Shown here one piece after another: positions 14,449 through 43,647 of a stretch of 64,000 nt of DNA. Location of the stretch: positions 182,402 to 246,401 of the forward strand of contig CAVXXB010000005.1 in the NCBI GenBank assembly GCA_963765585.1, read 5' to 3'. Numbering within the stretch: position 1 is the stretch's first letter; every line of letters starts with the position of its first letter. The DNA is from Calditrichia bacterium (GTDB lineage Bacteria; Calditrichota; Calditrichia; JAJRVZ01). Position numbers and translations under genes: made by a program. The notes beneath the pieces were generated by a model that was not told the DNA's origin, searched no databases, and saw nothing but the letters and a program-made list of their open reading frames with translations.

Positions 14449-15360
14449 TCAGCGAATGGCTGATATCCATTCACGATAACGATGATATAACTGATGTGCG
14501 GCAGGATAAATTGAATTTGGGCTCATGAAGTGTGGAAACTCAAATGTTATTAGTTTTTCAATTTTACTCTCATTGGCCATCTCCATTTTATATCTGAGTT
14601 TGCGGAAATCGATAGGAGGAAATTTTATAGGCATGTCTCGGTCAAATGATTCCACATTACTCCAACTGATGATGTGATGTTTATTACACAATTTTTGATT
14701 TATTTCCAGGTAATCGCCCAGGACTTCGAGAGGAACATTGCCATCCTGAAAAGCTACGATATCGACGAAACCATCAATTCGTGAAAATACAGCCTGCCAT
14801 TCCTGCTCGTGCTGTTCAATTGAGATTGCTGATTCGCCAAATTGTTTAATCCCTTTTATATAGGGAGAAATAAGAATCGGCACTTTCTTTAAATTGTTCA
14901 AATGTCTGGCTAATGTTTCATATACTTTCATCATACCGTCATCATAGACACTTATTTCGTGACTGATATACCAGCCACAAAATGAGGTATGATGTCCGTA
15001 TTTCTCGATAAATTCATCACAGAGCAACTTGTTCAGGGATGCTTCGCGTTCGTACTTACCTTCGTGCCAATACTGTCCTGAATCATAGGTTCCGAAAAAA
15101 AATGACATACCACAGCGGTCTGCCTGACTCAAAAACAACTCTACCAGATCCAAATGTACCGGAAATATTTGCATGTGGTTGGCGAGTACCTGGGAAGCAA
15201 AAGTAGCAGTTTTTTTATATCCGGCACGAATCAGTATGACGGTATCGATACCCGCTGCTTTCATAGCGTCAAAATCACGCGACCACTCAGCCGGACCCCA
15301 ATTTTGCGAAGGAATGTCGTGTGTTATTTCGTCGAGAAATGTACCCGTGATACCTATCAT
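14449..15360 (-). CDS. TIM-barrel glycoside-hydrolase-like protein (DUF4434-like)
   Basis: The N-terminus reads MIGITGTFLDEI...WGPAEWSRDFDAMKAAGIDTVILI. This is an architecture assignment from memory and has not been verified. Confidence 0.45.
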   Translation of the reverse strand: MIGITGTFLDEITHDIPSQNWGPAEWSRDFDAMKAAGIDTVILIRAGYKKTATFASQVLANHMQIFPVHLDLVELFLSQADRCGMSFFFGTYDSGQYWHEGKYEREASLNKLLCDEFIEKYGHHTSFCGWYISHEISVYDDGMMKVYETLARHLNNLKKVPILISPYIKGIKQFGESAISIEQHEQEWQAVFSRIDGFVDIVAFQDGNVPLEVLGDYLEINQKLCNKHHIISWSNVESFDRDMPIKFPPIDFRKLRYKMEMANESKIEKLITFEFPHFMSPNSIYPAAHQLYHRYREWISAIR

Positions 15361-15406
15361 ACCAACTCCAATAAATTTATTAATTTAGAATACCCATTGT
15401 TAATTA

Positions 15407-16579
15407 TTATTTTGCCACATTTGGTTCAAACTGGCGCATACATTGATATAGTGCGCGTGGCACGTGGAAACATCCTTTCCATTTTCCACCTTTTAACGGA
15501 AGCAAAATTTCGCCTCTGCGGTTCAGATAGCCATACCATTCGCCATATTTCTTATCCGGAAAATGTTGCCAGGTATACTCATGAACTTTATGATACCAAT
15601 TCCGGCAGTCTTTGCGCTCTGTCAATCGCCAGCTCATAGCCAGGGCAACAAGTGTCTCAAGATGAACCCACCACAATTTCTGATCCCACTCTAATTGTTG
15701 CGGCGGATTGTCTTTTATATCCATGAAATAATAGATCCCGCCATATTCTTCATCCCAGGCAAAATTGAGTGTGTTGATAATTATATCAACACATTGTTCA
15801 ATGCGCTCGTTATTGCCTTCTTGTTCGGCAATATCGATTATAAATGCCATGGCCTCAATACCATGTCCGGGATTGATCAGTCGTCCTTCAAAACAATCTA
15901 TAAATTTACCTTCGGGGGAAACATGCTCATGTAAAATTTGTTTTTCAGAATTAAGAAACAGATCAAACAATTCTGCGATGCTGTTGTCTATTGTATCACT
16001 CACCAAATCATCCTCCAGCATCCACGCCAGTTCTGTAGTCAGATTCGCCAGTATCATCGGCATTGCCAGTGATTTAACTGGTCGCGAATCGCTTACTGTT
16101 TTGTCATATTTTCCTTTGGGATTATCGCGGCGTCTGAGAATATTTTTAAATGTTTTCTCTGCAATGCGTCTCGCCTGATCATCATCAGCGGCCAATGCAT
16201 ATTGACTGAAAGCCATAGCTGCAAAGCAATCTGAGAATATATTATAGGGTTGTATTAACGGATTCCCATCTCTTGTGAGGGAAAAATACCAGTTACCATA
16301 CTGATCCCTACCATGCTGCTCAAGAAATTTGATGCCATGCTGCGCCAGGTCGAGCCATGATTTTTTCTTTTCCAAACGATTATACAACATCGAGAACAAC
16401 CATACCTGCCTCGCCTGCAACCAGACAAATTTATCAGTATCATACACCTTCCCGGTGCGATTGAGACAAGTAAAATATCCGCCGGACTTTTTATCGGGAG
16501 ATAATTTTTCCCAGAAAGGAATCACATTGTTTAATAATTCCTGGCGATATTTTGCAGCTAAATTTAGATTATTCCGCAT
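15407..16579 (-). CDS. N-acylglucosamine 2-epimerase (AGE) family protein (GlcNAc / cellobiose / mannose 2-epimerase-like)
   Basis: It has an (alpha/alpha)6 fold signature, 390 aa, with [33 protein letters not shown]...[15 protein letters not shown]. Confidence 0.8.
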
Positions 16580-16744
16580 ATATTTTATTCTCTATATTAT
16601 TAAATTACCCTGTTATTTATTTTAATGGAACATAGAAACAACAATAATTTTGAGATAAAAATTATCCTATGATACCTGGATATTCAGAACAATTATACCC
16701 TGAAAAGACCAGATCTTATATCAAGAGGATCAGCATCTCTGATC

Positions 16745-16875
16745 TATAAATGGCCCGCTGATTTCGCGGATTTAGCAGATTCACGCCGATTTAATTTTAA
16801 TGATTACTAGTTCCGCGTAAATCCGTACTGTCCCGTCTCACGGGCGTAATCAGTGTAATCAGTTTGCTATTTTTC
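16745..16875 (+). repeat. Dispersed intergenic repeat element, copy A (core plus 9-mer array)
   Basis: The core aaatggcccgctgatttcgcggatttagcagattcacgccgatttaa is followed by a ccgcgtaaatccgt...gtaatcagtgtaatcag array ending tttgctattt. It is homologous to copies at 40413, 43684 and 63330. Confidence 0.7.
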
Positions 16876-16895
16876 CTTAAACGTTGTAATTGATA

Positions 16896-18788
16896 CTATC
16901 TGACTAAAATCATCTTCTTTACAGCCTGTCCGTAGGCGGTTTTTATGCAACAAATATATACACCACTGGCGTATCCGGCTGCATTCCATTCTAATATATA
17001 ATTTCCTGCAGTTTGAGCAGAACTTACGAGTGTGACCACTTTTTCGCCCAGCACATTGTATATACTCAGATCGACATCACTATATGCCGGGAGTTCATAA
17101 TCGATAGTCGTAACAGGATTAAACGGATTGGGATAATTCTGTTGCAGACTGAATTCGCCGGGTATAGTATGTGTCATAATTGTATTGTCCTGAATGTCGG
17201 AAATAATAACATCCGGAGATTTTTTACGGTTGATCATAATCATAGCGGCATCGGCCACCAGTTTTTCTCCGGCTAACAGGCCGGCATTTGACATTTTGAC
17301 GACAGTTTGCATACCCGGATCCAGATGAATACTGCCAACTGCCTGCCAGCCCGCTTTTGACCCGTCTTTTTGATTTAGATAATAAACAATGCTGTCAGAA
17401 CCAGAGTAGAGTTTTACCGGAACATTTGACCCCGCCAGCGCACCGGTAACATTATAAATAAACACATCAAACCAGGCAGAAAAAGGCACGTTAAATTGAT
17501 ATTGGATGCTGGCTGGATTTGAATCAGAATTAACCAGGATGCCGTTATCATAACCAGCAATATCCGATGCCGCCCATTCTCCGGTGATTAACGCTCCGGC
17601 GTCATTCTCATTAACAATATTTGCTTTTGGCCGCCAGATATTACCCTTGCGGTCCGGAATCAGGGCCGGCTCTGCATACCAGGTCGCCTTCAACGTATCA
17701 CCCAATAAATTACCATTTGCCCGAAGTCCTTCATAAAAGAAAAATGCCTCACCGTTTACCTGTTTACTCCGGTTGGTTTTAATAGATTCTAATAAAAATC
17801 CGGGATCTATAAGATATGAGCCGCTTTTTACCAACATTCCGGCATAGTAAATGTCATTAAATCCGGGGAAGTTATTTAATGATTTATTTAGTTCAAACGC
17901 GTAATCCTCATAGTTATACCGGTATAATTGCGGAATAATATTATCGGCAATACCATCCAATACCCAGGTCTTTGAATCTTGCAAGTACTCCTGATAGGAC
18001 CATGGGTAAAGACTGGGGCTTGCGGATATGATCATATTTTTATTCCGGCTTTTAATCGAATCACGTACCTCCCTAAAAAAGCCACTTAGTTTATCTGCCC
18101 TCCAGCGCATCCAATCTGAATTTTTATTTTCCAGAGGGGGTAGATTACCATCATGCTCCTGTTTATAAACAGATACCGTCACCGAATCGTAGCCACCTTC
18201 AACCGGCATGGCCGGGATACGGTCGGAGTATTCGATACCATCTACATCATATTGTTCAATTACTTCAATTGCCAGCGCATGCATAAATTCCTGTACTTCC
18301 GGATTAACGGCTGACATCCAGTCAAAACCATTCTTTACAACCAGATTTCCATTCACATCTTTTAGTGCCCAGTGCGGATATTTACTAAGAATGTGACCAC
18401 CGTTCTGTGAATAGGAAGTAGAAAATCCCATTTCGAACCATGGCAGAACCTCCATGCCGTTGCGGTGTGCTTCAATGATTATTCGTTGCAGGGGATCGCG
18501 ATTAGTAAATGAAGGATGGATTTTTTGACCAAAGTATTTTTCCATTACCTGGCTTGGGTAGAGCGTATAATCACCATCGGCTCCATTGCTGTTCCAAACT
18601 ACAACTAATATTGTATTGATACCGATATCAGACAGATAATCCATGGCTTCCGCTATCTTATGGTCAGAGAACATTACATCACTGTCCACATTGGTAATTT
18701 TTACGGCTCTGAATTCCTGCAGATTCTGACCATACAGGTTCAAAATAAAACAAATGACTAATGCAGGCCAAAATTTAGTGCGCATCAT
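16896..18788 (-). CDS. Glycosyl hydrolase-like 10 (GHL10, PF02638/DUF187) protein with T9SS C-terminal sorting domain
   Basis: The GHL10 core reads RAVKITNVDS...EAHRNGMEVLPWFEMGF...YDVDGIEYSDRIP. The CTD reads LQQNYPNPFNPVTTIDYELP.... Confidence 0.8.
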   Translation of the reverse strand: MMRTKFWPALVICFILNLYGQNLQEFRAVKITNVDSDVMFSDHKIAEAMDYLSDIGINTILVVVWNSNGADGDYTLYPSQVMEKYFGQKIHPSFTNRDPLQRIIIEAHRNGMEVLPWFEMGFSTSYSQNGGHILSKYPHWALKDVNGNLVVKNGFDWMSAVNPEVQEFMHALAIEVIEQYDVDGIEYSDRIPAMPVEGGYDSVTVSVYKQEHDGNLPPLENKNSDWMRWRADKLSGFFREVRDSIKSRNKNMIISASPSLYPWSYQEYLQDSKTWVLDGIADNIIPQLYRYNYEDYAFELNKSLNNFPGFNDIYYAGMLVKSGSYLIDPGFLLESIKTNRSKQVNGEAFFFYEGLRANGNLLGDTLKATWYAEPALIPDRKGNIWRPKANIVNENDAGALITGEWAASDIAGYDNGILVNSDSNPASIQYQFNVPFSAWFDVFIYNVTGALAGSNVPVKLYSGSDSIVYYLNQKDGSKAGWQAVGSIHLDPGMQTVVKMSNAGLLAGEKLVADAAMIMINRKKSPDVIISDIQDNTIMTHTIPGEFSLQQNYPNPFNPVTTIDYELPAYSDVDLSIYNVLGEKVVTLVSSAQTAGNYILEWNAAGYASGVYICCIKTAYGQAVKKMILVR

Positions 18789-20188
18789 GTTCTCCAGAAA
18801 ATCCGCTTACGCGTACAAAAACCGACACCCAGCGCAAGCAATACCGTGTAAAGTACACCACGCAAAAATCCCAGCCAGGGTGAAGGCGTAAGTGCGATAA
18901 AATTATCTTCTAATCCGGTGATAGCCAGAATAGGCCAGATAAAATTTGCAAAACCCACATAAGCCATCATCGGGTTTTGTCCATTTTCAATAAGAATCCT
19001 GAAGTATCTATGTTGTTTAAATACTTCTATCAAATTAAAGAAAATGATAAGGATATAGACCGAGAGGGCAGTGGTAATAAAATAGTAACTTAGTGTTGAC
19101 GGATCTTTTTTTATACCGCCTTCAAATGGCTCGAAACAATGTCCGATTATCAAAAATACCGTACCCCAGGAGATGAATTTCCTGAGTAATCTTTCTGTTT
19201 CATTAACCGGATTAATTACCAGTAAATTCAAGTAAACAGACAAAATCATTGCCATCATCCAGGTCAGCCATAGCCAGCGTGCCTGTAAGCCAAACAGATG
19301 ACCTGCGACGAGTAAAGCAGATAGCAATGTAATCAGACCCAGATTTGATGCTGGCCAGGAATTACGGGCACCTTTTCCTGTATTCTGCTGAATCCAGACA
19401 ACCATCATATCACCGATTATGCTTCCCGGAATGACAATAAATAAATATTGCAGGTAGTAAAGTTTATACAACCAGGGAATGGGTGAAAATTCCCAAAGCC
19501 AGTTTGTCCAGCCGATTTCTGAGTGCGAAAGACGCAAAGCCAGCAGAATAAAAAGAATAGCGATTCTGATTAACAGATTTTTACGAGTCAGCAGCCAGAT
19601 CAGTGATACGAAAAAATAAGAATTAGCCAGAACGATAATAATGATATCACTGCGATAAAGCGAAAAACCGGTATTATCTTTATATCTAATGAGTGCCATC
19701 ATGACAAGTGCTAAAATCCAGGCACATATTTTTATCGCGAAACGAATTTTTGTATTCCAGTTTTGTGGCAACCTGGCAAAAATTCCAAACATTAATATAA
19801 ATCCACAGATCGCTAAAAGCCACGTAAGTGTCGCAGGTTCACTTTGAATCTGATGCGGGCGAATATGATGCAAAAACAAGGCGAAAAAAGAGAGAAGAAA
19901 TGTGCGTTCAACTATATATTTTAATAATGAGAATTCCGAATCTCCTTTTTCTATTCGTCTGCCCAGCGCAAAAGGAACGGCGGCACCAAGTGCAAATAAA
20001 AAAAGGGGAAAGACGAGGTCGACCCAGGTTAAACCGGGTAAGCCAGCATTCAATTGATGGCCGGGTGGTGGTAATTGCGCATGATACATCCAGGCTGGTA
20101 GTACCTTGTAAGGAATAACTCCGGAAAGCACCATGGTAAGGATTGCAAATCCGCGTAACGCATCGAGACTCTTAGCCCGTTGATTCAT
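18785..20188 (-). CDS. Multi-pass membrane acyltransferase of the HGSNAT-like family (heparan-alpha-glucosaminide N-acetyltransferase homolog, DUF5009/COG4299-like)
   Basis: The N-terminal motif is SLDALRGFAILTMVLSGVIPYKVLPAWMYHAQ, followed by ~10 TM helices. It overlaps the GHL10 gene by 4 nt, so the two form an operon. Confidence 0.6.
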   Translation of the reverse strand: MNQRAKSLDALRGFAILTMVLSGVIPYKVLPAWMYHAQLPPPGHQLNAGLPGLTWVDLVFPLFLFALGAAVPFALGRRIEKGDSEFSLLKYIVERTFLLSFFALFLHHIRPHQIQSEPATLTWLLAICGFILMFGIFARLPQNWNTKIRFAIKICAWILALVMMALIRYKDNTGFSLYRSDIIIIVLANSYFFVSLIWLLTRKNLLIRIAILFILLALRLSHSEIGWTNWLWEFSPIPWLYKLYYLQYLFIVIPGSIIGDMMVVWIQQNTGKGARNSWPASNLGLITLLSALLVAGHLFGLQARWLWLTWMMAMILSVYLNLLVINPVNETERLLRKFISWGTVFLIIGHCFEPFEGGIKKDPSTLSYYFITTALSVYILIIFFNLIEVFKQHRYFRILIENGQNPMMAYVGFANFIWPILAITGLEDNFIALTPSPWLGFLRGVLYTVLLALGVGFCTRKRIFWRT

Positions 20189-20220: not shown

Positions 20221-22383
20221 CTACTTTTTTTTCGCGGCAATGATCACCAAAGGATCATCGGGACCGGTTTTTTTTATTTCCACATCCAGCAAGGCCATAA
20301 TTTGCGAGGACTGAACCAATCCTGTCATGTCAATGATTCGGGCTGAAGAAAGTAAAAACAGATCTGGAATCAGTGCACCCGCGTCCCCATAAACGGTTAG
20401 CTCGTCTAACATGGTGTTGATCTGACTTCCCGCCAATGACGCTGTAGTTTGAGCAACAGAAGCGTCACGCAACTGAAGTCGGATCACACCCTCCCGGTCG
20501 ATTACTCTGATTGGCTGTTCTTCAATGCTGAATAAACCAAAGAACCGTTTTCGGACTTTTTTTGCACAAATCACGGATAAAAATGTGGTTTTTGCAGGTA
20601 TCGCGAGTTGATCTATTCCGACATTCATCGATTTGTCGGCAATTTGCATTATTTGCTTGTCAGTTAAAGTTTGGATTTGAACATCTCTGGCGCGCATCTC
20701 ACTGGATCCGGTAGCGACAGCAATTACACGCTTGTTGCGATTATCAACTTCCACGCTTACTTCGATGCTTTCAGGTGCCGCTCCCATCGCCTGAACAGAG
20801 TCTGACGCCTCCTGACGGATTTTTAACAGGTCATTTTCAGTGGGATCTATAATGGTGCGCTCAACTGAGTCGCGAATAATGCCCAGGGCGGCTCCAATTG
20901 CCGATACTACTTCGGTATTCTCAGCAATCATATATTTGTAATCCAGGTACTCGGCAGCAAACGGAACTAATGCAGGCGCACCACCGCCACCACCAATAAA
21001 TTGTATCAAACCCGGATCCAGCTTATACTCACGGATCAACTGACGAATTGTTGGTTTAATTTTTTCGGCCGCAATTTGCATAATGCGTCGGGCCAGCTGG
21101 TCCGCCGCACGATCCAGAAGTTTGGCAAAAGCAGCAAAAAAGGAATCCACTGCTGCCTTGTGCGCTGATCCGTGGCCGCTTGATATGTCGTATCCCAGAA
21201 ATGTGGCCGCACCCGATGGAGTGATTGTCAATTTACTTCCGGGCCTTTTACTATTTTCTATATATAAATAATCCTGCGGATCACCGGGTACCGGCTGAAA
21301 AGTATGCAGTTCAATATCAGTCAAATCTGATTCTTCAGAAAAGGCAATGTATTCCAGGTTAGCAATATGTGCGCTACGCGGGCCAACATCAATAAGTTGA
21401 TTACCGTTAAGACGTGGAATAGATCCTCCGGCAATGCCCAATGTTCTAACATCCAGCGTTCTTAAAAATAGCCGGTTACCACCGATTTGCGCCGTTTTAA
21501 CCTGAGGTTTTCCATTTTTGATAACCGATATATCGGTAGATGTACCTCCAACTTCAATAAATATGCCATCTGAAATTTTCACATACATTAACGCGGCCGC
21601 CAGACCGGCCGCCGGTCCGGAAAGCATTGTCAGAATCGGGCGTTTGCGCATTTCATCAATATGCATTATGCCGCCATCAGAACGCATAATCATTAACGGT
21701 GCAGTTATGCCGCTTTCGCGCACCGATTTTTCGGTCATATCGGCAGTCTGTAACATTTTAGGCAGCATACTGGCATTAATCACAGCTGTCCGGGTCCGGA
21801 TACGCAGGCCGTACAGTTTTGATATTTCACTGGCCGCCGTTGCCAGAAACCCTTTATCCCGTGCAATATTTTTTACCATTATTTCATTTGAAGGATTATC
21901 CACGCCAAAAGCTTCGGACGCAACAATTACCTCCGCACCTTGCCCTGCCAGTTGATCAATCGCCGATGCAATATTCTCTTCATTTAAGTGCGTTGCGGTG
22001 TCGAGAAAGATGTGATTACAGGGTAAATATTTTGCCAGTGCCAGCTGAATGTTTTGTGGATTGGTCTCACGTGCAGCAATGCGGCCTTCTAATCCGGTTC
22101 CCATACCAATAACGCCTACCCTGGCAATATCCCCCTCTAATAATGCGTTGGTGGCCTGAGTAGTGGAGTGGGCTATCAGCACAATCTCATTTTTATTTAT
22201 TTTGCCCTGATCAAGTATATCATTCAGAGATTGTACAACGCCCAGGGCAACACCTTCCCGGGCAGTGTGTGTGGTCGGCACACAGGCTTTGCACAAAATC
22301 GAGTAATCTGCAATATCCACGGCAACAGCGTGCGTAAATGTGCCGCCGACATCAATGCCGACTTTTATTTTTCGAGTTTCCAA
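20221..22383 (-). CDS. Hydantoinase/oxoprolinase-family protein (HyuA-like, ASKHA fold)
   Basis: The N-terminal Hydant_A_N signature is [17 protein letters not shown]. The second nucleotide-binding block is [14 protein letters not shown], with ...[12 protein letters not shown]. The length is 720 aa. Confidence 0.7.
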
Positions 22384-23906: not shown

Positions 23907-24128
23907 AAATAAGCGGATCCCGGTCTCATAATTTTAATTTTATTTTATCAAATTTGGTTTTATATTTCAAATAAATTTGTTATTTAACTTAACTAACTTT
24001 CAAATAAAATGCAGGTTTTGCCTTCTTCCGGTAAATTATTATTACCCGTTGCCAACGGCTTTCTGCCCGCGGACGCATACAATTGACTAAAATTAAATTC
24101 TGCAACATTATGGGATACTCTGCTTAAA

Positions 24129-33728: not shown

Positions 33729-34734
33729 GTGAATTTAAAGCCAACTATGTGCTGCATAATTAAAAATAAATTCAAATTACTGAGTACTTTGTTCCTGACC
33801 GGAATGATACTACTCGGTTCACAAGCCCGGGGTCAGGAATTTCGTAAAGCCGGTACGGCTGGGTTTGTCTTTCTGGAGATTCCGGTTTCAGCTCGATCCC
33901 AGGCGATGGCCGAAACTGGCATCACTATGTCTGATATGTATTCGGAAGGCTTATATGTGAATCCAGACTTTGATCGCGCTCTCGCAGAATCCCCTATCGG
34001 TAAATGCCACCTATTCAAACTGGTATGTAGATACAAAACATATGGCCGCTGGTGTTACATATAAGATTCCCGTCATCGGCATGATTGGATTTTCGATTGT
34101 CAGTTTTGATTTTGGGACGATGAAAAAAACACGTGTCATTTTACAGGATCGCGGTGAAGAAGGAAAATATTTTGATCTGGGCAGTTTTTCAGCTCAGGCT
34201 TATGCCGTCGGACTGACCTATGCGCGTTCACTAACTGAAAGATTCTCCATGGGTATTTCGGTCAGGTATGTACGCGAGACTATCGACCAATTCTATGCCG
34301 ATAATTTTGTCTTTGATTTGGGTTTTATTTATCTAACGGGTTTTGAATCTCTAAGAATCGGTGCATTTTTGCAAAGTTTTGGTCTTGAAACCGCTTATGC
34401 AAATGAGAAATTTCGTATGCCGCAGATTCTCAAAATGGGTCTTTCTTACGATTTCCTTGGAACCATCGGCGATCGCGAGCGATTAACCTTGCTGGCGGAG
34501 GCGATTCATCCCAGTGATGCCAGTGAACGTGTACATCTGGGTATGGAGGGCGTGCTTCTGGGATCAGTTATATTAAGAGCCGGCTACAAATTTGCGTATG
34601 ACAATGAAGATCTTACTATTGGCCTCGGATTAAAGTTTGATTACCACATGCATTCTTTCCGGGCTGATTTTTCATACCAGCGTCACAACTATCTCGAAGA
34701 TACGTTTCGATATTCGCTGGTTGTAGATTTATAG
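33729..34734 (+). CDS. PorV-like / FadL-like outer-membrane beta-barrel protein; frame break near 33990
   Basis: Two overlapping ORFs are involved. The N-terminus reads AGTAGFVFLEIPVSARSQAMAETGI, which resembles the PorV N-terminal motif. The rest is a beta-barrel with alternating amphipathic strands. The family call is tentative. Confidence 0.45.
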
Positions 34735-36379: not shown

Positions 36380-38342
36380 ATGTTTAAATTATTGTTACTG
36401 TTAGTAATAGTGATCACACTTTTAAATCCGGTTAGTGCGCAATATTCGCTGAACTGGAAAAATGATCAGGTTGTCACACCGGGCAATGATGTTACACGTA
36501 GTGCAGTATATAACCGGGCGACGGACCATGTTTTAGTCAGCTACCCGCAAATATGGTACTGATGTAATTATTCTCAACGCAGCTAGTGGTGATTCGGTTG
36601 GCAGGATGGATACAGCTAATTTAAGTGGTGGTACATATCCAATTAATATGATTGCCATAGCCGATGATGGTACCATATATGTCAGTAATTTGTCTGCACC
36701 ACAATTTACCACGGGTTCAACATTTAAGGTGTATCGATATGCAGATGAACAGGCAGCTCCGGAACTGGTTTTTGATGATGCCCTGGGTGATAATCGTTAT
36801 GGTGATGCACTGGCAGCAATTGGCAGCGGTAATAATAAATACATTTATTCATCAGGACAGGGCAACGAAAAAATGGTCGCGCTGCGCGATGATGGATCGT
36901 CCAGCCTGATTAAGGTCGCCGAAGTAACGTTGCCACAGGCGGGTAATGCCCGGCATGGTATTGGTCCGGTCACTCCGGGCGGAAATGTCTGGGTGAACGG
37001 AGCAGATACCGGCGCACCACCGCCCAGCCTGTTGACCAAGGATGGTGTTTTGATAAGTGTAATTCCGGATTCCCTGGCTTCAGCGGGAGGCACATCTTTT
37101 ATCGGAAATTTAAAACTTGGTACTTATAATATTCTAACACTTGTGAATGGTTTTTCAGGTACCATTCGGTCCGTGGAGTATTCTGAAGATGAAATCGGCA
37201 ATATAGCATATGGATATTTTGGTGAAAACTCAGATTCGACGCTGCTGTTTCATCCCACAGGACAGATAGGAAATGCAAATGCCAGCGGAACAATTAGTTA
37301 TGATTCCAAGCGTAATGCCTTAGTCACCGTGATTGGACAAAATAGCGTTAGTTCGGTTAGCTTTGAGGGTATGTTAAAAACCAGCACACCACGCGATAGT
37401 AATCTGGTAATTAATATCGATGGTGTAAATGATTTTTTCCCTACTGATCATGTTGGTACCAGTAATGGTCGCGACATGTTTCTGACCTGGTCAGCAGGTA
37501 AATTCTTCGTAGGTATTACCGGCCAGACCCTGGTTGATCCGTCGGAAACTAATTTTATGTATGTTGCATTTGATCTGGATCCTGCGGGGGGGCAAGGCTC
37601 ATCCACACCACCGGAAGTATCCGGCGGGGTAATTGCACTACCTTTTCTGGCTGATGTGGTCTTTGCTATCGAACCCTGGAAAGAACCGGAATTTATGTTA
37701 GGCACCATTTATAAGTGGAGCGGATCGGCATGGACTTCAACTCTGTTTGATGGGAACCTGGCCAGCGAAGGTGCCCTGGCTTTTGCAGATACAGGGAACG
37801 GCAAACTGGCTGAATTTTCGGCCATAATGAACGAACCCGGTATTGGTACCGATTATACCGATCTGGCGGTGATGGCCTATGTGGCTGAAAAAGAAGCCTC
37901 CGGTGCCGTGCTCTCTGCATTTCCAACAGATAATCCGACTCAGACCGGCGCTGCATTTACTCATTATTTTTATATGGAAAGTCTGGCCGACGGCTTGTTT
38001 CCGACCAATACGGATCATGTACAAATTAAATCTGATCCCTCGGCGATTGACCGGAATTTTACCGGAGTGATCGAGTCATTTGAATTAGAACAAAATTATC
38101 CCAATCCGTTTAATCCTGTTACAACCATCACATACCGGGTTCCGGTTGCATCTCAAATTGATTTGCAAGTTTATGATATTACGGGGCGGCTGGTTAAGAC
38201 ACTGGTAAACAGGCCACAAAAAGCAGCAGGTAAGCATAATGTTTCTTTCGATGCTTCAACGCTTAGCTCCGGGATCTATTTTTATCAGTTGCAGGCTGAT
38301 GGCAAGCAAATACAAACACGAAAAATGATTTTGATTAAATAA
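36380..38342 (+). CDS. Secreted beta-propeller-like protein with T9SS CTD; frame break near 36540
   Basis: ORFs 36380-36562 (signal peptide) and 36606-38342 join in-frame-shifted as ...NRATDHVLVS/ATRKYGTDVIILNAASGD.... The CTD reads FELEQNYPNPFNPVTTITYRVP.... An AGGAGG RBS lies at 36371. Confidence 0.5.
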
Positions 38343-38542: not shown

Positions 38543-40396
38543 ATGAATAAATTGTTGTCTTTAATCATACTGATTTTCACAATTGCAACACTTACTTCAG
38601 CCCAGCAAAAGGAACTGCGCGGCACCTGGGTGGCCTGGGCCGGAAGCAATTATCCGCAAAAAGAACAGATCGCCGATTGGATGGACCAGCTGGCGGCGGG
38701 TAATATCAATGTGGTTTACGTTGATGTATGGCGATTTGGCTATCCATATTTTCGCAGTGAAGTATTCCACGATCTGACCGGCAAATGGACCGATCCGGGA
38801 TTAGTCGAAGGCCGTGATATCCTGCAGGAAATGATTGCCGAAGGGCACCGGGTGGGTATTGAAGTGGATGCATGGTTCGAAGCCGGGTTTGCAGCTTCTC
38901 AACTGGAAAACCGCGATTTATACTTTAGTAAACCACAGTGGTTTGCTAAAAAACAAAATGGCTCAGTCGATTTCTTTTCAAATGGGGGTCTGCGCTATAA
39001 CTGGCTAAGTCACTGTAATGAAGAAGCACAACAATTCCTGATTGATCTGGCACAGGAAGTGGCGGAAAAGTATGATGTGGATGGGATAGAGTTTGACCGC
39101 ATACGTTATCCCGAATTGGATTGCGGTTATGATTCTGCAACAGTTGAATTATATAAATCCGAGCATGATGGCCAGAGTCCGCCAACCAGTGTTGCAAATG
39201 CCGGTTGGATTCGCTGGCGCGCTGATAAATTGAATGACTTTGTCAACAGGCTTGCAGACTCGATTAAATCTGTCAATCCCGGTCTGACAGTGAGTAATGC
39301 CCCATTGTGGTACGGTTATGAACAATTTTGTCAGGACTGGCCACCCTGGATAAATAATAATTATTTAGATTTGGCAAGTACACAAATGTATTTTGCCAGC
39401 AATTCCCAATTTGAGTACCGCCTGGATATCGAATTACAAAAAGTAACAAATGATGGTGATTTATATCCAGGAATATCAACGGTGGCCAATGGTGAGGTGA
39501 CACCAGAAGCAGAGTTGATAGCCATGATAGAGACGACGCGGTCACGCGGATTACAGGGCAATGTGATCTGGTATCATTTAAACCTGTTAAATTATCTTGA
39601 TGGATTAAAAAATTCGGTATATGCAGAATCGGTGGAATTACCATATCGTGAAGCCGGATGGCGTAAACCGGCGATTATCATCAATGAATCAGATAGTGTT
39701 GTAAAAAAATCTACCGGTTGGGTCGATTATAATGGTATCCCTGGTTATGATAATGGTTGTCTTTATGCCAGCAACGTGGATAGCCAATGGATTGAGTATT
39801 ACGCTTCAATCCCGGATGAGGGGTGGTATGAAGTTTATGCGTATATCATACAATTTTTTAATGCTACCGGATCGGCGACCTATTACATTGCCGACTTGAA
39901 AGGCACACAACGAGTGCAGATTGATCAGACCAAACCAGCGAATGCGCGCTGGACAAAACTGGGCGATGTGTACCTGAACAAGGGGGATTCCCAGCGAATT
40001 GTATGGTTAAACAATGAAAATGTTGGCGATAAGTTTGTTTTTGCTGATGCAATTATGATTTTGAATACCAATCGTGTTCTTGGTCCGACCAGTCATGTAA
40101 ATAATCCGGATAATTATCTTGAGAATATTCCCGATGAATATATTTTAGGTCAAAATTATCCCAATCCGTTCAACAATAGAACAGTTATACCATTTACTTT
40201 AAATGATTCACAGTGGGTGGAAATCCAACTATACAATGTCAACGGTGAACAAGTCCAGACCCTTTATAGCGGCCAGACCAGACCGGGAGAAAATAAAATC
40301 CGGGTTGATCTAAGCCATATGGCCAGCGGGATTTATCTATATGGCATTCACAGTCGGAATTATAACCAATACCGCAAATTGATCTTATTAAAATAA
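38543..40396 (+). CDS. GHL10-family (PF02638) protein with T9SS C-terminal sorting domain
   Basis: The GHL10 core reads ELRGTWVAWAGS...EGHRVGIEVDAWFEAGF...YDVDGIEFDRIRYP. The CTD reads YILGQNYPNPFNNRTVIPF.... Confidence 0.8.
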   Translation: MNKLLSLIILIFTIATLTSAQQKELRGTWVAWAGSNYPQKEQIADWMDQLAAGNINVVYVDVWRFGYPYFRSEVFHDLTGKWTDPGLVEGRDILQEMIAEGHRVGIEVDAWFEAGFAASQLENRDLYFSKPQWFAKKQNGSVDFFSNGGLRYNWLSHCNEEAQQFLIDLAQEVAEKYDVDGIEFDRIRYPELDCGYDSATVELYKSEHDGQSPPTSVANAGWIRWRADKLNDFVNRLADSIKSVNPGLTVSNAPLWYGYEQFCQDWPPWINNNYLDLASTQMYFASNSQFEYRLDIELQKVTNDGDLYPGISTVANGEVTPEAELIAMIETTRSRGLQGNVIWYHLNLLNYLDGLKNSVYAESVELPYREAGWRKPAIIINESDSVVKKSTGWVDYNGIPGYDNGCLYASNVDSQWIEYYASIPDEGWYEVYAYIIQFFNATGSATYYIADLKGTQRVQIDQTKPANARWTKLGDVYLNKGDSQRIVWLNNENVGDKFVFADAIMILNTNRVLGPTSHVNNPDNYLENIPDEYILGQNYPNPFNNRTVIPFTLNDSQWVEIQLYNVNGEQVQTLYSGQTRPGENKIRVDLSHMASGIYLYGIHSRNYNQYRKLILLK

Positions 40397-40412
40397 GACA
40401 ATCAATTATAAG

Positions 40413-40500
40413 TAAATCAGTGTAAAACCGCACCTATCCGCGTAATCCGTGTGCAATGGGCGAGTAATGAATGGCCCAGCGGGTCTCGCTGAATTAAAGA
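40413..40500 (+). repeat. Dispersed intergenic repeat element, copy C (9-mer array plus core); the core supplies the start codon of the next gene
   Basis: It reads taaatcagtgtaaaaccgcacctatccgcgtaatccgtgtgcaatgggcgagtaATGAATGGCCCagcgggtctcgctga. Compare copy B at 43684. Confidence 0.65.
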
Positions 40501-41822
40501 CAATATTATCAAAACATAGTGCCGTTGAAAAAAAGGATAAAGATATTAATAAATTCCTTTTAAGATTTCTGTTATTATTCATTTCATTTTTGAATATTAC
40601 CTGTCAAAACAATACAGATTTAATAAGTGAATCGGATCTTTTTTCTGAGCGCACCAGGTTAAGCAAACGATCCGAATTCAAAAGCCGGCTGATACATCAC
40701 ACGATTGAGTTCGCGCTGTCAAAGAACCTATCCGATAGCACCGAGTCGGATTGGCAGGGGGCATTTTGGGCCATGGGACTTGCCCGTTATCGTTCGCAAA
40801 AAACCGATGTGGCTATGAATCAGGCGCTGGCTGACTTTGATAATCGATCGGATAGTTTTAAAAGGTCGTTGCTGGAAATATTATATACTTTATATGAAGA
40901 TGAATACATCACAGATATCATCAATATTTCTATGCGTACAACAAGTAATAAATTATTTGCTATGTGTGCCATTTATTTAAAGGGATATGACAATGATTTG
41001 ATTGCAAGGATGGTCGCAAAATTTCCAGATTGGCAAAGCGATCCTATCCTTTATTCCTTATACCAGGATTTATCTGGCAATGTATATGAGCGGCCGCCCT
41101 TAGCAGATTTATTGCGACACGATTTTTCGACCAAATCGCCGGTGGTCTTTAGCATTCAGCGACCGGATCGCCGATATCCAGGACTTTTGTTAATCAGGTT
41201 GGCAAATGGTCAGTTTCTCAAGACTGAGAATGATAGTATGTTTTACATCCGGCAATTGGCACTGTCCAGTTCAAATCTTCCTGGCTATCTGGCCAATGGT
41301 AATACACCACAGGGTGTTTTTTCGATGCAGGGAGAATTAATTTCTCAAAATGTTTTTATTGGACCAACACCGACACTGCAGACGGTAATGCCATTCGAAG
41401 TATCTGTGTCCGAATTTTTTCACTCAACCGATACTAAAGGCCAGGAATGGGAAATCAGCAGATATAGCGATTTGCTCCCGGATTCCTGGAAGGAGTATAC
41501 ACCCATCTACGAGGCGTATTATGCCGGTCAGGCCGGGAGAACAGAAATAATTGCGCATGGCAGCACTATCGATCCCGAATTTTATAGGAACGAACCGTTT
41601 TATCCCCTAACACCATCTTTAGGCTGCATGACAGCATATGAAAGATGGAACGATCAAACTGGTGTATGTGAACAAAGTAGACAACTGCAATTGGTTAATC
41701 GACTAAAGAAATCTGGGGATTTGAACGGGTTCTTAATCGTGGTTGAGATAAATGATATAAAAAAGCCGGTCAGCATGGCGGATCTTAGTATCATCGCCGC
41801 AAACAAAAAAATGCAAAAATAA
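40467..41822 (+). CDS. Hypothetical (lipo)protein
   Basis: The ATG at 40467 (MNGPAGLAELK...) lies inside the repeat core. A hydrophobic stretch FLLRFLLLFISFLNITC follows. There is no recognisable domain and the start is uncertain. Confidence 0.4.
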   Translation: MNGPAGLAELKTILSKHSAVEKKDKDINKFLLRFLLLFISFLNITCQNNTDLISESDLFSERTRLSKRSEFKSRLIHHTIEFALSKNLSDSTESDWQGAFWAMGLARYRSQKTDVAMNQALADFDNRSDSFKRSLLEILYTLYEDEYITDIINISMRTTSNKLFAMCAIYLKGYDNDLIARMVAKFPDWQSDPILYSLYQDLSGNVYERPPLADLLRHDFSTKSPVVFSIQRPDRRYPGLLLIRLANGQFLKTENDSMFYIRQLALSSSNLPGYLANGNTPQGVFSMQGELISQNVFIGPTPTLQTVMPFEVSVSEFFHSTDTKGQEWEISRYSDLLPDSWKEYTPIYEAYYAGQAGRTEIIAHGSTIDPEFYRNEPFYPLTPSLGCMTAYERWNDQTGVCEQSRQLQLVNRLKKSGDLNGFLIVVEINDIKKPVSMADLSIIAANKKMQK

Positions 41823-41991
41823 ATGAGATCATGTTCCCAGTATACCACCTCGGACACGGTGACGTTTAAACAATTAAATGTCATTGCGAGAAGCGAAGCG
41901 ACGAAGCAATCTATGGCAAAAGTTCTGAATGGCATATACTTATAACCGATTGAAGAATGTTATAAACATTTATAATAAAGGTGAAATTGAG

Positions 41992-43647
41992 ATGCAAAAG
42001 AAGATATGTAGTATATTGTTTGTTCTGATTTTTATTTTTTCCGGATATGCTGAAGATATTATCTGGACTGAAGACACGACGGTTTCATTGCCTGATAGTA
42101 TTAAACTTTATAAAGGAACCCGCACATCGCCCAAGTTGCAGGCTTTTTATCTGGATGTAAATTTGAAAAATGCAGAAATCGCTGTACGTCCATATTTTGG
42201 AGTTCAGACTGCCACCCTGCCAGTATTCACCTCGGCAGCCGGCGCATATGTTGCAATAAATGCCGGTTTTTTTGGTGGTAGTACATCGTATTCCACAATT
42301 ATTAGTCCCGGCGAATTAAAAGCCGCAAACGTGCAATCCTTAGCACGCAATAACCTCACATTTCCTGTCATCCGAAGCATGTTTAGTATAGATACTGACG
42401 GCACAATGGCAGTAGACTGGATGTACCATTTTGATAATACTTTGGAAGGTGTATATTCATTTTCGCAACCATTGTCATATATCAACAACGACCCGGTGCC
42501 GAAAAGTACACCAAAAAAGGAAGACGGAACACCTTTGACAGATTTGCTGGTGGCTGTCGGTGGGGCACCAGTGCTGATAAAAAATGGCGTTATCAATATT
42601 ACTTACGATGAAGAAATTATGTGGGGATCGGGTGTCGGTTTGGACAATAGGGATCCAAGAACCGCTGTTGGTTATACACTGGATAATCACGTGATATTAT
42701 TTGTCGCGGATGGCCGGCAGACGATTAGTGAGGGCGTCAGCTTGCCGGAACTGGCACAAATATTATCGGACCTGGGGTGTAACGAAGCAATCAACCTGGA
42801 TGGCGGTGGTTCCACGCAGATGGCTTTGCCCGGACAATATATAAATTCGCCATCGGAACAGCGGCCGGTGCCAACCATTTTTGCAGTAGTACATAAAGAT
42901 TCTCTGGGCGTACCGGATGAGCCCCAGATTGAAAAGATTATTGATAGCGGAGATTCTGAATGCGAGTTAATTGGGCCAGGATGGTTTCCTACAGCGAATT
43001 CGGGTTTTTGGGGCGAAACACCTTCCATGCTGCATTCGAAGGGAGATGGATCGAGTTATGCACAATATCAGGTGAATGTGGCCGCCGATGCTATTTATGA
43101 TGTTTATGCCTGGTGGGTCGCTTCAACAAACAGATGCACGGATACACCTTTTATTATTCACCATAAGCATGGCATCGATACAGTTTATAAAGATCAGGCT
43201 ACGAATGGCTCCAGCTGGGTACCAATTGGTACGTATACATTTCGTGGAGATTCGAGTGAAAAAATTATTGTTTCTGATAAGGCGACCAATGGCACATATG
43301 TGGTCGTGGATGCGATCCGTCTGGTCACTTATGATACTACCGTTACAGCATTAACGAATTCAGAGGTACGGCATGTACCTGAAAATTTTGTTTTGCATCA
43401 AAATTATCCCAATCCGTTTAATCCTGTCACCACGATTCAATATCAGCTGGCGAAACCAGGCCATGTGGATATAAGTATCTATAATTTACTTGGCGAAAAA
43501 ATGACTACTTTAGTTAATACAATTCAGGCTGAGGGATATTATTCTACTGAATGGCATGCGGACGGGTTTGGAAGTGGTGTATATTTTTATCGCATGTTGA
43601 CCGCGGACGGTCAAATGCAAACAAGAAAACTAATCCTGCTAAAATAA
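41992..43647 (+). CDS. Phosphodiester glycosidase family protein (PF09992/DUF2233, NAGPA 'uncovering enzyme'-like) with T9SS CTD
   Basis: The motifs are YVAINAGFFGG and AVGYTLDNHVILFVADGRQ...NLDGGGSTQMAL. The CTD reads VLHQNYPNPFNPVTTIQYQL.... The ATG is at 41992. Confidence 0.75.
   Translation: MQKKICSILFVLIFIFSGYAEDIIWTEDTTVSLPDSIKLYKGTRTSPKLQAFYLDVNLKNAEIAVRPYFGVQTATLPVFTSAAGAYVAINAGFFGGSTSYSTIISPGELKAANVQSLARNNLTFPVIRSMFSIDTDGTMAVDWMYHFDNTLEGVYSFSQPLSYINNDPVPKSTPKKEDGTPLTDLLVAVGGAPVLIKNGVINITYDEEIMWGSGVGLDNRDPRTAVGYTLDNHVILFVADGRQTISEGVSLPELAQILSDLGCNEAINLDGGGSTQMALPGQYINSPSEQRPVPTIFAVVHKDSLGVPDEPQIEKIIDSGDSECELIGPGWFPTANSGFWGETPSMLHSKGDGSSYAQYQVNVAADAIYDVYAWWVASTNRCTDTPFIIHHKHGIDTVYKDQATNGSSWVPIGTYTFRGDSSEKIIVSDKATNGTYVVVDAIRLVTYDTTVTALTNSEVRHVPENFVLHQNYPNPFNPVTTIQYQLAKPGHVDISIYNLLGEKMTTLVNTIQAEGYYSTEWHADGFGSGVYFYRMLTADGQMQTRKLILLK

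Follow-up and report, generated by a model that had tools for sequence, protein, structure and literature searches.

The 64,000-nucleotide stretch of a Calditrichia bacterium genome analysed here (positions 182,402 to 246,401 of contig CAVXXB010000005.1, GenBank assembly GCA_963765585.1; the 'window', numbered from its first letter) contains, at positions 14449-43647, a group of genes best read as a single catabolic locus of 29 kb, consisting of two divergent operons regulated by a ROK-family protein. These genes very probably encode a system of secreted enzymes and outer-membrane uptake that scavenges a partly de-N-acetylated polymer of the N-acetylglucosamine (GlcNAc) type. The peptidoglycan of other bacteria, along with wall polymers linked through GlcNAc-1-phosphate (GlcNAc-1-P), is tentatively proposed as the substrate, with slightly less than an even chance of being correct. 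In architecture this is a TonB-dependent glycan-utilisation locus, a known kind; no description of its enzyme set, of a SusD-less receptor cassette with a PorV-like protein, or of its new family of YkuD-fold proteins was found in the open-access literature, in keeping with the remark in a preliminary description of this DNA that it was not a described locus type.

The preliminary description, made from the sequence alone, had suggested a secreted system for scavenging or remodelling polymers of GlcNAc or N-acetylmuramic acid (MurNAc). The case for scavenging is strengthened by a TonB-dependent receptor cassette and by an exported lipoprotein with a predicted YkuD fold. The location of the cassette in the same operon as the enzymes favours scavenging over remodelling of the producer's own wall, and the conservation of the exported YkuD-fold protein points to peptidoglycan rather than to chitin or host glycans.

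Organisation and conservation of the locus

Pfam and NCBIfam scans covered every long open reading frame (ORF) between 12.6 and 45.9 kb of the window, and domain architecture and export signals were read for all 19 genes of the locus. Its features, including proteins with the C-terminal domain (CTD) of type IX secretion system (T9SS) cargo, are as follows.

14449-15360, minus strand: DUF4434 TIM-barrel protein, putative glycosidase; PF14488, E 8.8e-72; last gene of the minus-strand operon
15407-16579, minus strand: AGE-family N-acyl-D-glucosamine 2-epimerase (GlcNAc to and from N-acetylmannosamine, ManNAc); PF07221, E 1.9e-76; NF052547 equivalog
16896-18788, minus strand: GHL10a, with signal peptide, GHL10 domain, Golvesin_C and T9SS type-A CTD; PF02638, E 7.5e-52
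18785-20188, minus strand: DUF5009/HGSNAT-like polytopic membrane protein, 467 aa; PF16401, E 1.1e-79
20221-22383, minus strand: hydantoinase-A/oxoprolinase-A-like (HyuA-like) ASKHA ATPase, 720 aa; PF05378 and PF01968 (Hydant_A_N and Hydantoinase_A)
22443-23906, minus strand: polytopic inner-membrane permease, 487 aa, recognised by its hydrophobic segments; first gene of the minus-strand operon
23978-23999, minus strand: conserved 22-nt block AAGTTAGTTAAGTTAAATAACA in the divergent permease/ROK promoter region
24129-25325, plus strand: NagC/Mlc-type regulator with winged helix-turn-helix (HTH) and ROK domains; PF00480, E 1.7e-40, and MarR-type HTH
25551-27392, plus strand: flavin adenine dinucleotide (FAD)-dependent oxidoreductase, 613 aa; PF12831 (FAD_oxidored), E 8e-108
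27418-28572, plus strand: GHL10b, a short GHL10 paralog of 384 aa with a lipoprotein-type signal; PF02638, E 9.8e-57
28692-31607, plus strand: TonB-dependent outer-membrane receptor with N-terminal CarboxypepD_reg; PF13715, PF07715, PF00593
31674-33698, plus strand: 674-aa exported protein with a weak CTD-like end and no Pfam match; the receptor's partner
33729-34734, plus strand: PorV/PorQ-family outer-membrane protein, split by a frameshift (33729-34064 and 33970-34734); NF033709
34744-36217, plus strand: two small exported proteins (273 and 226 aa) with signal peptides, probable outer-membrane beta-barrels
36380-38342, plus strand: T9SS CTD cargo protein in two ORFs (36380-36562 and 36606-38342); CTD PF18962, E 2.7e-13
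38543-40396, plus strand: GHL10c, with signal peptide, GHL10 domain, Golvesin_C and CTD; PF02638, E 5.6e-53
40449-41822 as annotated, start probably 40467 or later, plus strand: YkuD-fold lipoprotein, 450 aa, predicted N-terminal HEAT/ARM-like domain and C-terminal YkuD fold
41929-43647, likely start 41992, plus strand: NAGPA-like phosphodiester glycosidase with Golvesin_C and CTD; PF09992, E 5.5e-33; PF25275, E 1.9e-25; PF18962

These matches bear out every assignment in the preliminary description except the IT-superfamily label of the permease: three GHL10 paralogs, two of them with CTDs; an HGSNAT-like protein translationally coupled to one of them; a NAGPA-like protein with a CTD, resembling NAGPA structures and with a start at 41992 that is likely the true one; and the AGE, DUF4434, FAD oxidoreductase, hydantoinase-family and ROK proteins. 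Eight further genes belong to the same operons, including those for the TonB-dependent receptor, its 674-aa partner, the PorV/PorQ-like protein, the two small outer-membrane proteins (OMPs), the CTD cargo protein and the YkuD-fold lipoprotein. The plus-strand operon runs unbroken beyond GHL10b, through the receptor, 674-aa protein, PorV-like protein, two OMPs, CTD protein, GHL10c and YkuD-like protein to NAGPA. The genes on either side, for an S41 peptidase on the upstream flank and for a cation-chloride cotransporter on the downstream flank, are unrelated to the locus, so its boundaries agree with 14449-43647. Neither ribosomal RNA nor transfer RNA genes were found in the window.

A signal peptide together with a type-A CTD above the cut-off (TIGR04183/PF18962) is present in GHL10a, GHL10c, the NAGPA-like enzyme and the protein at 36380-38342, all four of which are predicted from their N-termini and CTDs to be secreted or surface-located; the 674-aa protein falls below the CTD cut-off (16.4 bits against 23). 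GHL10b and the 450-aa protein have N-termini of predicted lipoproteins. The DUF4434, AGE and HyuA-like proteins, the flavoenzyme and the ROK regulator lack signal peptides and so are assigned to the cytoplasm.

Four genes of the window are each broken into two ORFs: those for the PorV-like protein (33729-34734), the CTD cargo protein (36380-38342), an AcrB-type resistance-nodulation-division (RND) pump (57503-60602), in which ACR_tran residues 1-604 and 654-1020 lie in separate ORFs, and an ABC_ATPase protein (PF09818; 60932-62459). With intact orthologs elsewhere, the breaks are more suggestive of indels introduced during assembly than of four pseudogenes.

The contexts of homologs were mapped by tblastn and blastp. 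Gene order is kept at protein identities ranging from 90% to about 45% in contigs of KSB1, Calditrichota and Zhuqueibacterota, and the named relatives at 45-60% identity belong to candidate division KSB1, Calditrichota, Zhuqueibacterota, Marinimicrobia, Fidelibacterota and Ignavibacteria. These relationships place the host in the Fibrobacteres-Chlorobi-Bacteroidetes (FCB) group but not in Bacteroidota, in accord with T9SS cargo in the absence of SusD. The arrangements in related loci, designated by L numbers, include the following; MAG denotes a metagenome-assembled genome.

L010 and L011 (78-90% identity): identical order, from receptor to DUF4434
L012 (Calditrichae MAG, 54-73% identity): receptor and ROK, then divergently permease, HyuA-like, DUF5009 and GHL10/CTD
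L014 (Zhuqueibacterota): GHL10 and FAD, then YkuD-like, permease, HyuA-like, DUF5009 and GHL10/CTD
L015: only the triad of permease, HyuA-like and DUF5009
L019 and L101: whole plus-strand operon in order (receptor, 674-aa partner, PorV-like, OMPs, CTD protein, GHL10c, YkuD-like, NAGPA)
L008 (Bacteroidia MAG): ROK, GHL10, DUF5009, FAD and AGE, then directly SusC and SusD
L099 and L098: FAD and GHL10 genes beside a NagB/PIG-L fusion and a ROK kinase

Among 38 loci centred on the YkuD-like gene and no shorter than 6 kb, 17 contain one or more additional genes of the locus. On this comparative evidence the cluster is a conserved functional unit built of modules: permease, HyuA-like protein and DUF5009, with or without GHL10/CTD; flavoenzyme and short GHL10; receptor, 674-aa partner, PorV-like protein and OMPs; and GHL10/CTD, YkuD-like protein and NAGPA/CTD. 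Chance clustering was rejected as an explanation, the neighbourhood recurring in many unrelated contigs. The preliminary description had made its reading dependent on support for the GHL10, HGSNAT and NAGPA assignments and on co-localisation in related genomes; the domain searches support all three, and the genes are co-localised in related and distant genomes alike.

Another module variant was observed in the complete genome of Calditrichota bacterium LG25 (L097, 10001-19182), where the flavoenzyme gene is followed by genes for a GDSL/SGNH esterase and a transglutaminase-core protein, and a 956-aa GHL10 with a faint CTD-type match is encoded 4.5 kb away.

Enzymes, transporters and control elements

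The three GHL10 paralogs score 176.8, 192.8 and 180.5 bits (GHL10a, b and c) against a PF02638 cut-off of 27.9 and share 33-43% mutual identity, GHL10c and GHL10a being 33% identical. GHL10a and GHL10c are predicted to be secreted glycan-cleaving enzymes; GHL10b, which has the lipoprotein signal LLISC and neither a carbohydrate-binding module (CBM) nor a CTD, is predicted to be a periplasmic or membrane-anchored glycosidase. Orthologs of GHL10a occupy the same position in L010, L012 and L014, as does one of GHL10c in L019. DigH (YddW) of Escherichia coli, which we take to be a member of PF02638/GHL10, provides one characterised comparison, having been found to degrade denuded glycans. The other is Cwp19 of Clostridioides difficile, a GHL10-family lytic transglycosylase of peptidoglycan that cuts glycan strands (PMC6016235, PMC5765458) and belongs to PF02638 (PMC5765458); the activity of DigH is described in PMC12288456. 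Cwp19 is the closest solved structure to the GHL10 proteins of the locus, at low similarity (E 5e-11 to 2e-7; GHL10c 5e-11). The proposed active-site residues Asp196, Gln295, Tyr297 and Trp127 of Cwp19, the roles of which are themselves only proposed (PMC5765458), are retained in all three paralogs and their orthologs: a six-sequence alignment contains an invariant D-R (D189), Q287..Y289 and W117 (GHL10a numbering), and the DD, W and Q..Y positions are kept in a pairwise alignment of GHL10b with Cwp19.

The family is related to the C-terminal domain of PgaB, the closest structural relative of Cwp19, and Asp196 has been equated with PgaB Asp466, proposed to stabilise an oxazolinium intermediate (PMC5765458). 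GHL10c has a weak match to the PgaB C-terminal (GH153) region. Catalysis by the GHL10 enzymes appears, from the residues retained, to be substrate-assisted, in which case a de-N-acetylated residue in the -1 subsite would block cleavage. Golvesin_C, the module shared by GHL10a, GHL10c and the NAGPA-like protein, has a match in the C-terminal module of a xanthan lyase from Paenibacillus. It appears to be equivalent to CBM6/35/36-like_2, a domain with glycan-binding activity in two lectins of Bacteroides (PMC9166713).

No other part of the locus is as informative about the substrate as the YkuD-fold lipoprotein. It has 584 homologs, all annotated as 'hypothetical' and without Pfam domains, and the protein itself matched neither YkuD (PF03734) nor any other Pfam family even at E <= 10. 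In an alignment of 40 homologs the lipobox Cys is conserved, and H335, G336, T338, G357 and C358 are invariant. AlphaFold predicts with high confidence (predicted local distance difference test, pLDDT, 92.5) an N-terminal HEAT/ARM-like helical domain followed by a C-terminal YkuD fold of the L,D-carboxypeptidase/transpeptidase type; a Foldseek search with this model matched only the N-terminal helical repeat. The motif HGT...SLGC fits the catalytic His/Cys signature of YkuD enzymes, the probable equivalence being drawn from the motif, and the homologs would constitute a new sequence family with a YkuD fold and about 600 members. All of the characterised YkuD-fold enzymes known to us act on the stem peptides of peptidoglycan. 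An HG[TS]...[ST]xGC-like signature with its His and Cys, as well as export, is shared with Pgp2 of Campylobacter jejuni, Csd6 of Helicobacter pylori and Bd1075 of Bdellovibrio. The protein differs from these in its longer His-Cys spacing (23 residues), in lacking a Pfam YkuD match, in bearing a HEAT/ARM-like helical repeat at the N-terminus where they have an NTF2-like domain, and in being encoded inside a glycan-utilisation operon rather than a cell-shape locus. Its start is probably at 40467 or later, since the first codons sit in a dispersed intergenic repeat.

The DUF5009 protein (PF16401, 267.9 bits; 11 hydrophobic segments) is coupled to GHL10a through an ATGA at 18785-18788, in which its TGA stop overlaps the ATG start, with GGAG upstream. 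Human HGSNAT structures are its only matches in the PDB (E 1.6e-4). In 21 diverse homologs D9-A-L-R12, a DxxR motif in the first helix, and H36, in WMYHAQ, are invariant, and His44 is frequent. With PF16401, a polytopic architecture (about 10-11 transmembrane segments) and DxxR, a motif defined for the transmembrane acyltransferase (TmAT) superfamily (PMC12423673), the protein belongs among the HGSNAT-like TmATs, and DUF5009 proteins are intermixed with HGSNAT in structure-based trees (PMC12423673). It is accordingly annotated as a putative transmembrane acetyl-CoA:glucosaminide N-acetyltransferase.

A bacterial precedent is NagX, found in the chitin (nag) operons of Shewanella, Caulobacter, Echinicola and other genera. 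NagX is an HGSNAT-like transmembrane protein required, according to fitness data, for the use of glucosamine (GlcN) and not of GlcNAc; its proposed role is to N-acetylate GlcN in the periplasm, drawing on acetyl-CoA from the cytoplasm, so that the sugar is acetylated when it is taken up (PMC9007349). Those operons are also under NagC/ROK-type control, as here. In contrast, the locus has a DUF5009 protein coupled translationally to a secreted GHL10, a different permease, and no nagA, nagB, nagK or nagP. At 36.8 bits against a cut-off of 480 for the NagX equivalog NF046061, the DUF5009 protein is by sequence a relative of NagX and not its ortholog. The utilisation of chitin or chitosan, with GHL10 enzymes replacing GH18 and GH19 and DUF5009 acting as NagX under a NagC-like regulator, would be in line with the typical occurrence of NagX-type proteins in chitin operons and their role in glucosamine use (PMC9007349), with the NagB/PIG-L and ROK kinase genes near related loci, and with the GH94 (possible chitobiose phosphorylase) and NanE genes near the triad in L015. 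It is nevertheless highly improbable: the NagX score is far below its cut-off, no GH18, GH19, GH20, GH46, GH75, AA10 or chitin-binding module occurs in the window or related loci, and the NAGPA-like protein, YkuD-fold enzyme and epimerase would be left unexplained.

The YkuD-like gene is paired with an N-acetyltransferase gene in at least eight loci, as part of either a DUF5009 operon or an unrelated Antibiotic_NAT. The latter, a soluble protein of the aminoglycoside 3-N-acetyltransferase family, is encoded directly 5' of the YkuD-like gene in L043 (9141-12998), L073 (8096-11209), L100 (9129-11329) and L101 (9180-11344), with no DUF5009 operon nearby. This recurrent association of an N-acetyltransferase with GHL10 and YkuD-like proteins suggests that the substrate is partly de-N-acetylated.

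The NAGPA-like enzyme scores 115 bits against a PF09992 cut-off of 25, over profile positions 59-168 of 169 only, and matches NAGPA itself (6pku and 6pky, E about 2e-9) and the DUF2233 protein 3ohg (E 4.8e-13) in the PDB. In L019, L100 and L101 its orthologs are encoded 3' of the YkuD-fold gene. As pure inference, NAGPA chemistry and a ManNAc epimerase would together fit the ManNAc-GlcNAc-1-P linkage unit of Gram-positive walls.

The preliminary description also drew a comparison with lysosomal enzymes, which stands as far as family membership, DUF5009 being homologous to HGSNAT and the NAGPA domain being held in common, and extends no further. The lysosomal set of HGSNAT, NAGLU, NAGPA and SGSH is alike in the logic of acetylating a free amine before a glycosidase cuts; it differs in that GH89 (NAGLU) is absent here, where GHL10 would fill the role of glycosidase, and in that the bacterial proteins bear CBM and T9SS modules. 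That the target is instead a glycan from a host or animal, such as heparan sulfate or mucin, is exceedingly improbable, and heparan sulfate itself is almost certainly not the substrate. The HGSNAT- and NAGPA-like proteins, the sulfatases with SGSH_C in two relatives, and the binding of N-glycan motifs by Golvesin_C-type CBMs of two Bacteroides lectins (PMC9166713) would suit such a target. Set against them, the window has no polysaccharide lyase, GH88, GH89, GH20, GH33 or sulfatase genes, the relatives come from environmental lineages (KSB1, Calditrichota, Ignavibacteria and others associated with cyanobacteria), and the YkuD-fold enzyme would again be unaccounted for.

Uptake through the outer membrane is represented by the receptor cassette. 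The receptor scores 69.6 bits against the cut-off of 368 for TIGR04056 (SusC/RagA), through an N-terminal match only, and the gene after it encodes no SusD domain (PF07980/PF14322); a SusC/SusD pair is absent from the window and present in the Bacteroidia locus L008. Orthologs of the receptor, 60-66% identical, adjoin the 674-aa partner in L018, L024 and L047, and also in L019 and L101, and the partner lies 3' of the receptor in L018, L019, L024, L066 and L101. The partner itself has weak C-terminal matches to PorZ, PorU and TIGR04183. The PorV/PorQ-like protein reaches 136.5 bits against the NF033709 cut-off of 90, from profile position 40, the PorV and PorQ equivalogs staying below theirs; its upstream ORF contains the signal peptide and a PorV-like N-terminus, and intact 316-aa orthologs occur in L019 and L101. 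The second small OMP (226 aa) weakly matches OMP_b-brl_2, and both OMPs are encoded in the same order in L019, L066 and L101. The CTD cargo protein, with its signal peptide in ORF 36380-36562, would be ~640 aa long if the frameshift near 36560-36606 were repaired, and has intact orthologs of 670 aa in L019 and 665 aa in L101. Nothing confident was found in Pfam at E <= 10 for the 674-aa partner, the two small OMPs, the CTD protein outside its CTD, or the permease. A cassette of receptor, ~680-aa protein with a CTD-like end, PorV/PorQ-family protein and one or two small OMPs is conserved in L018, L019, L024, L047, L066 and L101, and may be a means by which SusD-less FCB bacteria couple TonB-dependent uptake to surface proteins delivered by the T9SS.

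The locus resembles the SusC/SusD polysaccharide utilisation loci (PULs) of Bacteroidota in clustering secreted or surface glycoside hydrolases with a TonB transporter, periplasmic trimming enzymes, an inner-membrane transporter and a regulator, and its ROK, GHL10, DUF5009, FAD and AGE genes directly adjoin SusC/SusD in the Bacteroidia MAG. It departs from them in that the receptor is followed by the 674-aa protein, the PorV/PorQ-like protein and two OMPs instead of SusD, and in that its enzymes reach the surface by T9SS CTDs, whereas PULs use lipoproteins of the SusE/F type. To our knowledge, none of its catalytic families is a classified CAZy glycoside hydrolase (GH) family with a known PUL substrate.

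This layout bears on whether the system might be non-nutritional, serving to build or remodel the producer's own envelope or matrix, be that its peptidoglycan, an exopolysaccharide or a surface layer. DigH and Cwp19 act on the wall of their producer (PMC12288456, PMC6016235), acylation of the producer's surface glycans is common among TmAT-type proteins (PMC12423673), the peptidoglycan that YkuD-fold enzymes remodel is usually that of their own cell, and distant YkuD-like homologs occur in housekeeping contexts. Unlike those autolysins, the GHL10 enzymes of the locus are three paralogs in a catabolic, TonB-linked operon, two of them with a CBM6/35/36-like module and a T9SS signal. Against a non-nutritional role, the four or five proteins with T9SS CTDs and CBM-like modules would end up beyond the outer membrane, at a distance from the sacculus of the cell itself, the TonB receptor, permease, AGE, DUF4434 and NagC-like repressor form a typical uptake-and-catabolism layout, and the Bacteroidia version is a canonical SusC/SusD PUL. 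A role in the producer's own envelope is consequently judged very unlikely.

The inner-membrane permease, with about nine or more hydrophobic segments, gave no match at E <= 10 in Pfam, NCBIfam or the PDB, either as a single sequence or as a seven-sequence profile, so the IT-superfamily label of the preliminary description was not confirmed beyond its polytopic character. Its orthologs, 62-90% identical, lie upstream of the hydantoinase-like gene in six loci, and the HyuA-like gene always adjoins that of the permease (L010, L012, L014, L015 and L018). The HyuA-like protein matches N-methylhydantoinase and 5-oxoprolinase structures (E 1e-26 to 1e-24) over residues 7-339 of 720 only; no Hydantoinase_B (HyuB) partner was found in the window or beside orthologs, and the protein may perform a putative ATP-dependent step on the imported product. 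The AGE protein reaches 640 bits against the NF052547 cut-off of 600, the cellobiose 2-epimerase and mannose isomerase models staying far below theirs, and its ortholog in the Bacteroidia PUL L008 is 54% identical. The DUF4434 protein, which has no signal peptide and is probably cytoplasmic, matches 4h41 (E 5e-84), a solved but uncharacterised 'putative alpha-L-fucosidase', and its gene holds the same position in L010 and L011, where a ferritin gene follows.

The model of the flavoenzyme (pLDDT 88.9) resembles only generic flavoproteins of the fumarate/urocanate-reductase and ketosteroid-dehydrogenase types, and a contig search with the protein returned mostly cyanobacterial homologs (37-42%) without synteny, only L008 being informative. 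The protein in the window lacks a signal peptide. Homologs elsewhere are exported, with a lipoprotein signal in L008 (4111-5955), a twin-arginine translocation (Tat) signal in L022 (149-1876, minus strand) and SLH domains in P0260 and P0349. To judge from these signals, phyla seem to differ in the compartment where the step takes place.

The ROK regulator, the best NCBIfam match of which is NagC, below the cut-off, is encoded divergently from the permease operon, and a ROK gene holds the same position in L010, L011, L012 and L008. The 22-nt block AAGTTAGTTAAGTTAAATAACA at 23978-23999 is almost unchanged in L010, L011 and L012, where its flanks have diverged, and is present as a single copy in the window; it is a candidate operator or promoter element. 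A search for an operator shared by the promoters of the locus gave only this permease/ROK block. Shared k-mers in other intergenic regions were rejected as operators, since they correspond to a dispersed repeat at 16740-16870, 40410-40500, 43680-43840, 63367-63390 and 63576-63599. The annotated start of the YkuD-like gene falls within one of the copies. The core of the repeat is ATCCGCGTAATCCG[CT]GTGC[AT]ATGG ... TGAATGGCCC..CTGAT.TCGC, of which no copies are expected by chance, and it may be an element similar to repetitive extragenic palindromic (REP) sequences or miniature inverted-repeat transposable elements (MITEs).

Proposed pathway and candidate substrates

A pathway can be proposed in which each enzymatic step is inferred from domain content, export signals and synteny. 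The T9SS would export two GHL10 enzymes, the NAGPA-like enzyme, each of the three with a Golvesin_C module, and two proteins without an assigned fold. Outside the cell, the GHL10 enzymes would cut glycan strands and the NAGPA-like enzyme would cleave a GlcNAc-alpha-1-phosphodiester, for example in the unit linking teichoic acid or a secondary polymer to MurNAc-6-OH. The fragments would be taken up by the SusD-less TonB receptor with its 674-aa partner and PorV-like protein. In the periplasm, the lipoprotein GHL10b would shorten the glycans, the YkuD-fold lipoprotein would trim stem peptides, and DUF5009 would re-N-acetylate exposed glucosamine with cytoplasmic acetyl-CoA. As GHL10 catalysis is apparently substrate-assisted, re-acetylation would render resistant bonds cleavable, a sequence of steps analogous to the action of HGSNAT and then NAGLU in the lysosome. 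The products would be imported by the 487-aa permease and converted in the cytoplasm to central amino-sugar intermediates by the HyuA-like ATPase, DUF4434, the PF12831 flavoenzyme and AGE (ManNAc to and from GlcNAc), the whole being controlled by the NagC-like ROK repressor.

The scavenging of exogenous peptidoglycan by an FCB-group bacterium has a parallel in the MurNAc cluster of Tannerella forsythia (AmpG, NamZ1 and MurT-MurK-MurQ). TfMurT is reported to be distantly related to membrane proteins of the NagX/HGSNAT type (PMC9007349) and is encoded beside a kinase of the ASKHA fold, an arrangement resembling the DUF5009 and HyuA-like (ASKHA) pair. The two systems differ in that NamZ (GH171), AmpG, a BadF-type MurK and the MurQ etherase are missing here, in that the ATPase is a 720-aa HyuA-like protein and not of a sugar kinase family, and in that the locus adds T9SS-secreted GHL10 and NAGPA proteins and a TonB receptor.

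As to the substrate, the pointers towards peptidoglycan are the predicted YkuD fold with its invariant His and Cys and the glycan-directed activities of Cwp19 and DigH. The same machinery could instead act on another glycan containing GlcN or GlcNAc, with amino-sugar polymers that are phosphodiester-bridged or alpha-linked as candidates: a poly(GlcNAc-1-P) or teichoic-type polymer, a partly deacetylated poly-N-acetylglucosamine (PNAG) or Pel-like exopolysaccharide of biofilms, an N-sulfated heparosan-like chain or Man-6-P-GlcNAc phosphoglycans. This alternative is a serious one, if unlikely on balance, and a number of features accord with it. GHL10c is weakly similar to the GH153 region of PgaB, the closest structural relative of Cwp19 (PMC5765458); sulfatases with SGSH_C occur in L014 and L098, GH38 and HAD-like genes beside NAGPA in L100 and L101, and 3-keto-disaccharide hydrolase genes beside the FAD gene in L098; and MurNAc-specific genes are lacking in the loci examined. 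In addition, eukaryotic HGSNAT and NAGPA both act on alpha-GlcN(Ac). The alternative would leave the conserved exported YkuD-fold Cys/His enzyme unexplained, however, the characterised GHL10 enzymes with genetic support act on peptidoglycan, and neither a sulfatase nor GH38 is encoded in the window.

Several observations weigh against the proposal of a system scavenging peptidoglycan. The roughly 15 loci examined lack MurQ, AnmK, NagZ, NamZ, MupG, Amidase_2/3, AmpG and families of lysozymes and lytic transglycosylases, and LysM, SPOR and other peptidoglycan-binding domains are absent from all of them. The relatives add sulfatases with SGSH_C (L014, L098), GH2 (L012) and GH38 with an HAD-like protein (L100, L101), and in the last two loci the HAD-like protein, of 450 aa, and the GH38 enzyme are encoded between the YkuD-like protein and NAGPA. 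Distant homologs of the YkuD-like protein, at about 40% identity, are found in housekeeping contexts, and the specificity of GHL10 enzymes is not uniform, since activity on starch has been reported for DogH (PMC9967864). The sole local (phmmer) alignment of the DUF5009 protein starts at HGSNAT His297 and pairs this catalytic His with Asn47, the invariant His36 and frequent His44 lying just upstream. No reaction is assignable to the flavoenzyme, the HyuA-like protein or the permease, and the several frameshifted genes may reflect either assembly errors or gene decay.

A more ambitious and decidedly doubtful version of the peptidoglycan proposal is that the locus provides a hitherto unrecognised route for degrading lysozyme-resistant walls, N-deacetylated and decorated with polymers, without a classical muramidase, amidase or MurQ. 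GHL10 endoglycosidases would depend on DUF5009 as a 're-acetylase', NAGPA would strip phosphodiester polymers, the YkuD-fold enzyme would trim peptides, and new cytoplasmic chemistry would follow, in which the HyuA-like ATPase might open a muramic delta-lactam or phosphorylate a sugar, and the PF12831 flavoenzyme might eliminate the lactyl ether by oxidation or break a glycosidic bond via a keto intermediate. Such a route could be a major means of recycling sediment necromass across Calditrichota, KSB1, Zhuqueibacterota, Ignavibacteriota and Bacteroidota.

Nearby features and implications

Further surface systems of the T9SS and TonB types are encoded near the locus, on the minus strand: a 1091-aa protein with six DUF4397 repeats and a T9SS CTD (46288-49563), and a second TonB receptor of the CarboxypepD_reg type followed by a DUF4249 protein (50889-54146). 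Towards the start of the window lies a cobalamin riboswitch (420-593, minus strand, 96.8 bits), the controlled gene of which is beyond the window start; upstream of it on the same strand are genes for a CTD protein (849-1349) and a C39-like peptidase (1387-1932). At 4445-6972 (plus strand), the gene for a radical-SAM protein with B12-binding and DUF4070 domains precedes that for a fatty-acid desaturase; this pair resembles a lipid-modification system and is unrelated to the locus.

Peptidoglycan and amino-sugar polymers make up a large, nitrogen-rich part of microbial necromass, the degraders of which in sediment and soil are poorly known. The locus offers a physiological context for at least six families of little or no known function: GHL10, DUF5009, DUF4434, PF12831, bacterial NAGPA and the predicted YkuD-fold family. 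It also shows a possible coupling between TonB-dependent uptake and T9SS cargo in SusD-less FCB bacteria, and suggests a general strategy of re-acetylating and then cleaving, in parallel with the lysosomal breakdown of heparan sulfate. If the substrate were confirmed, the genes of the locus would serve as markers of cell-wall recycling in metagenomes.

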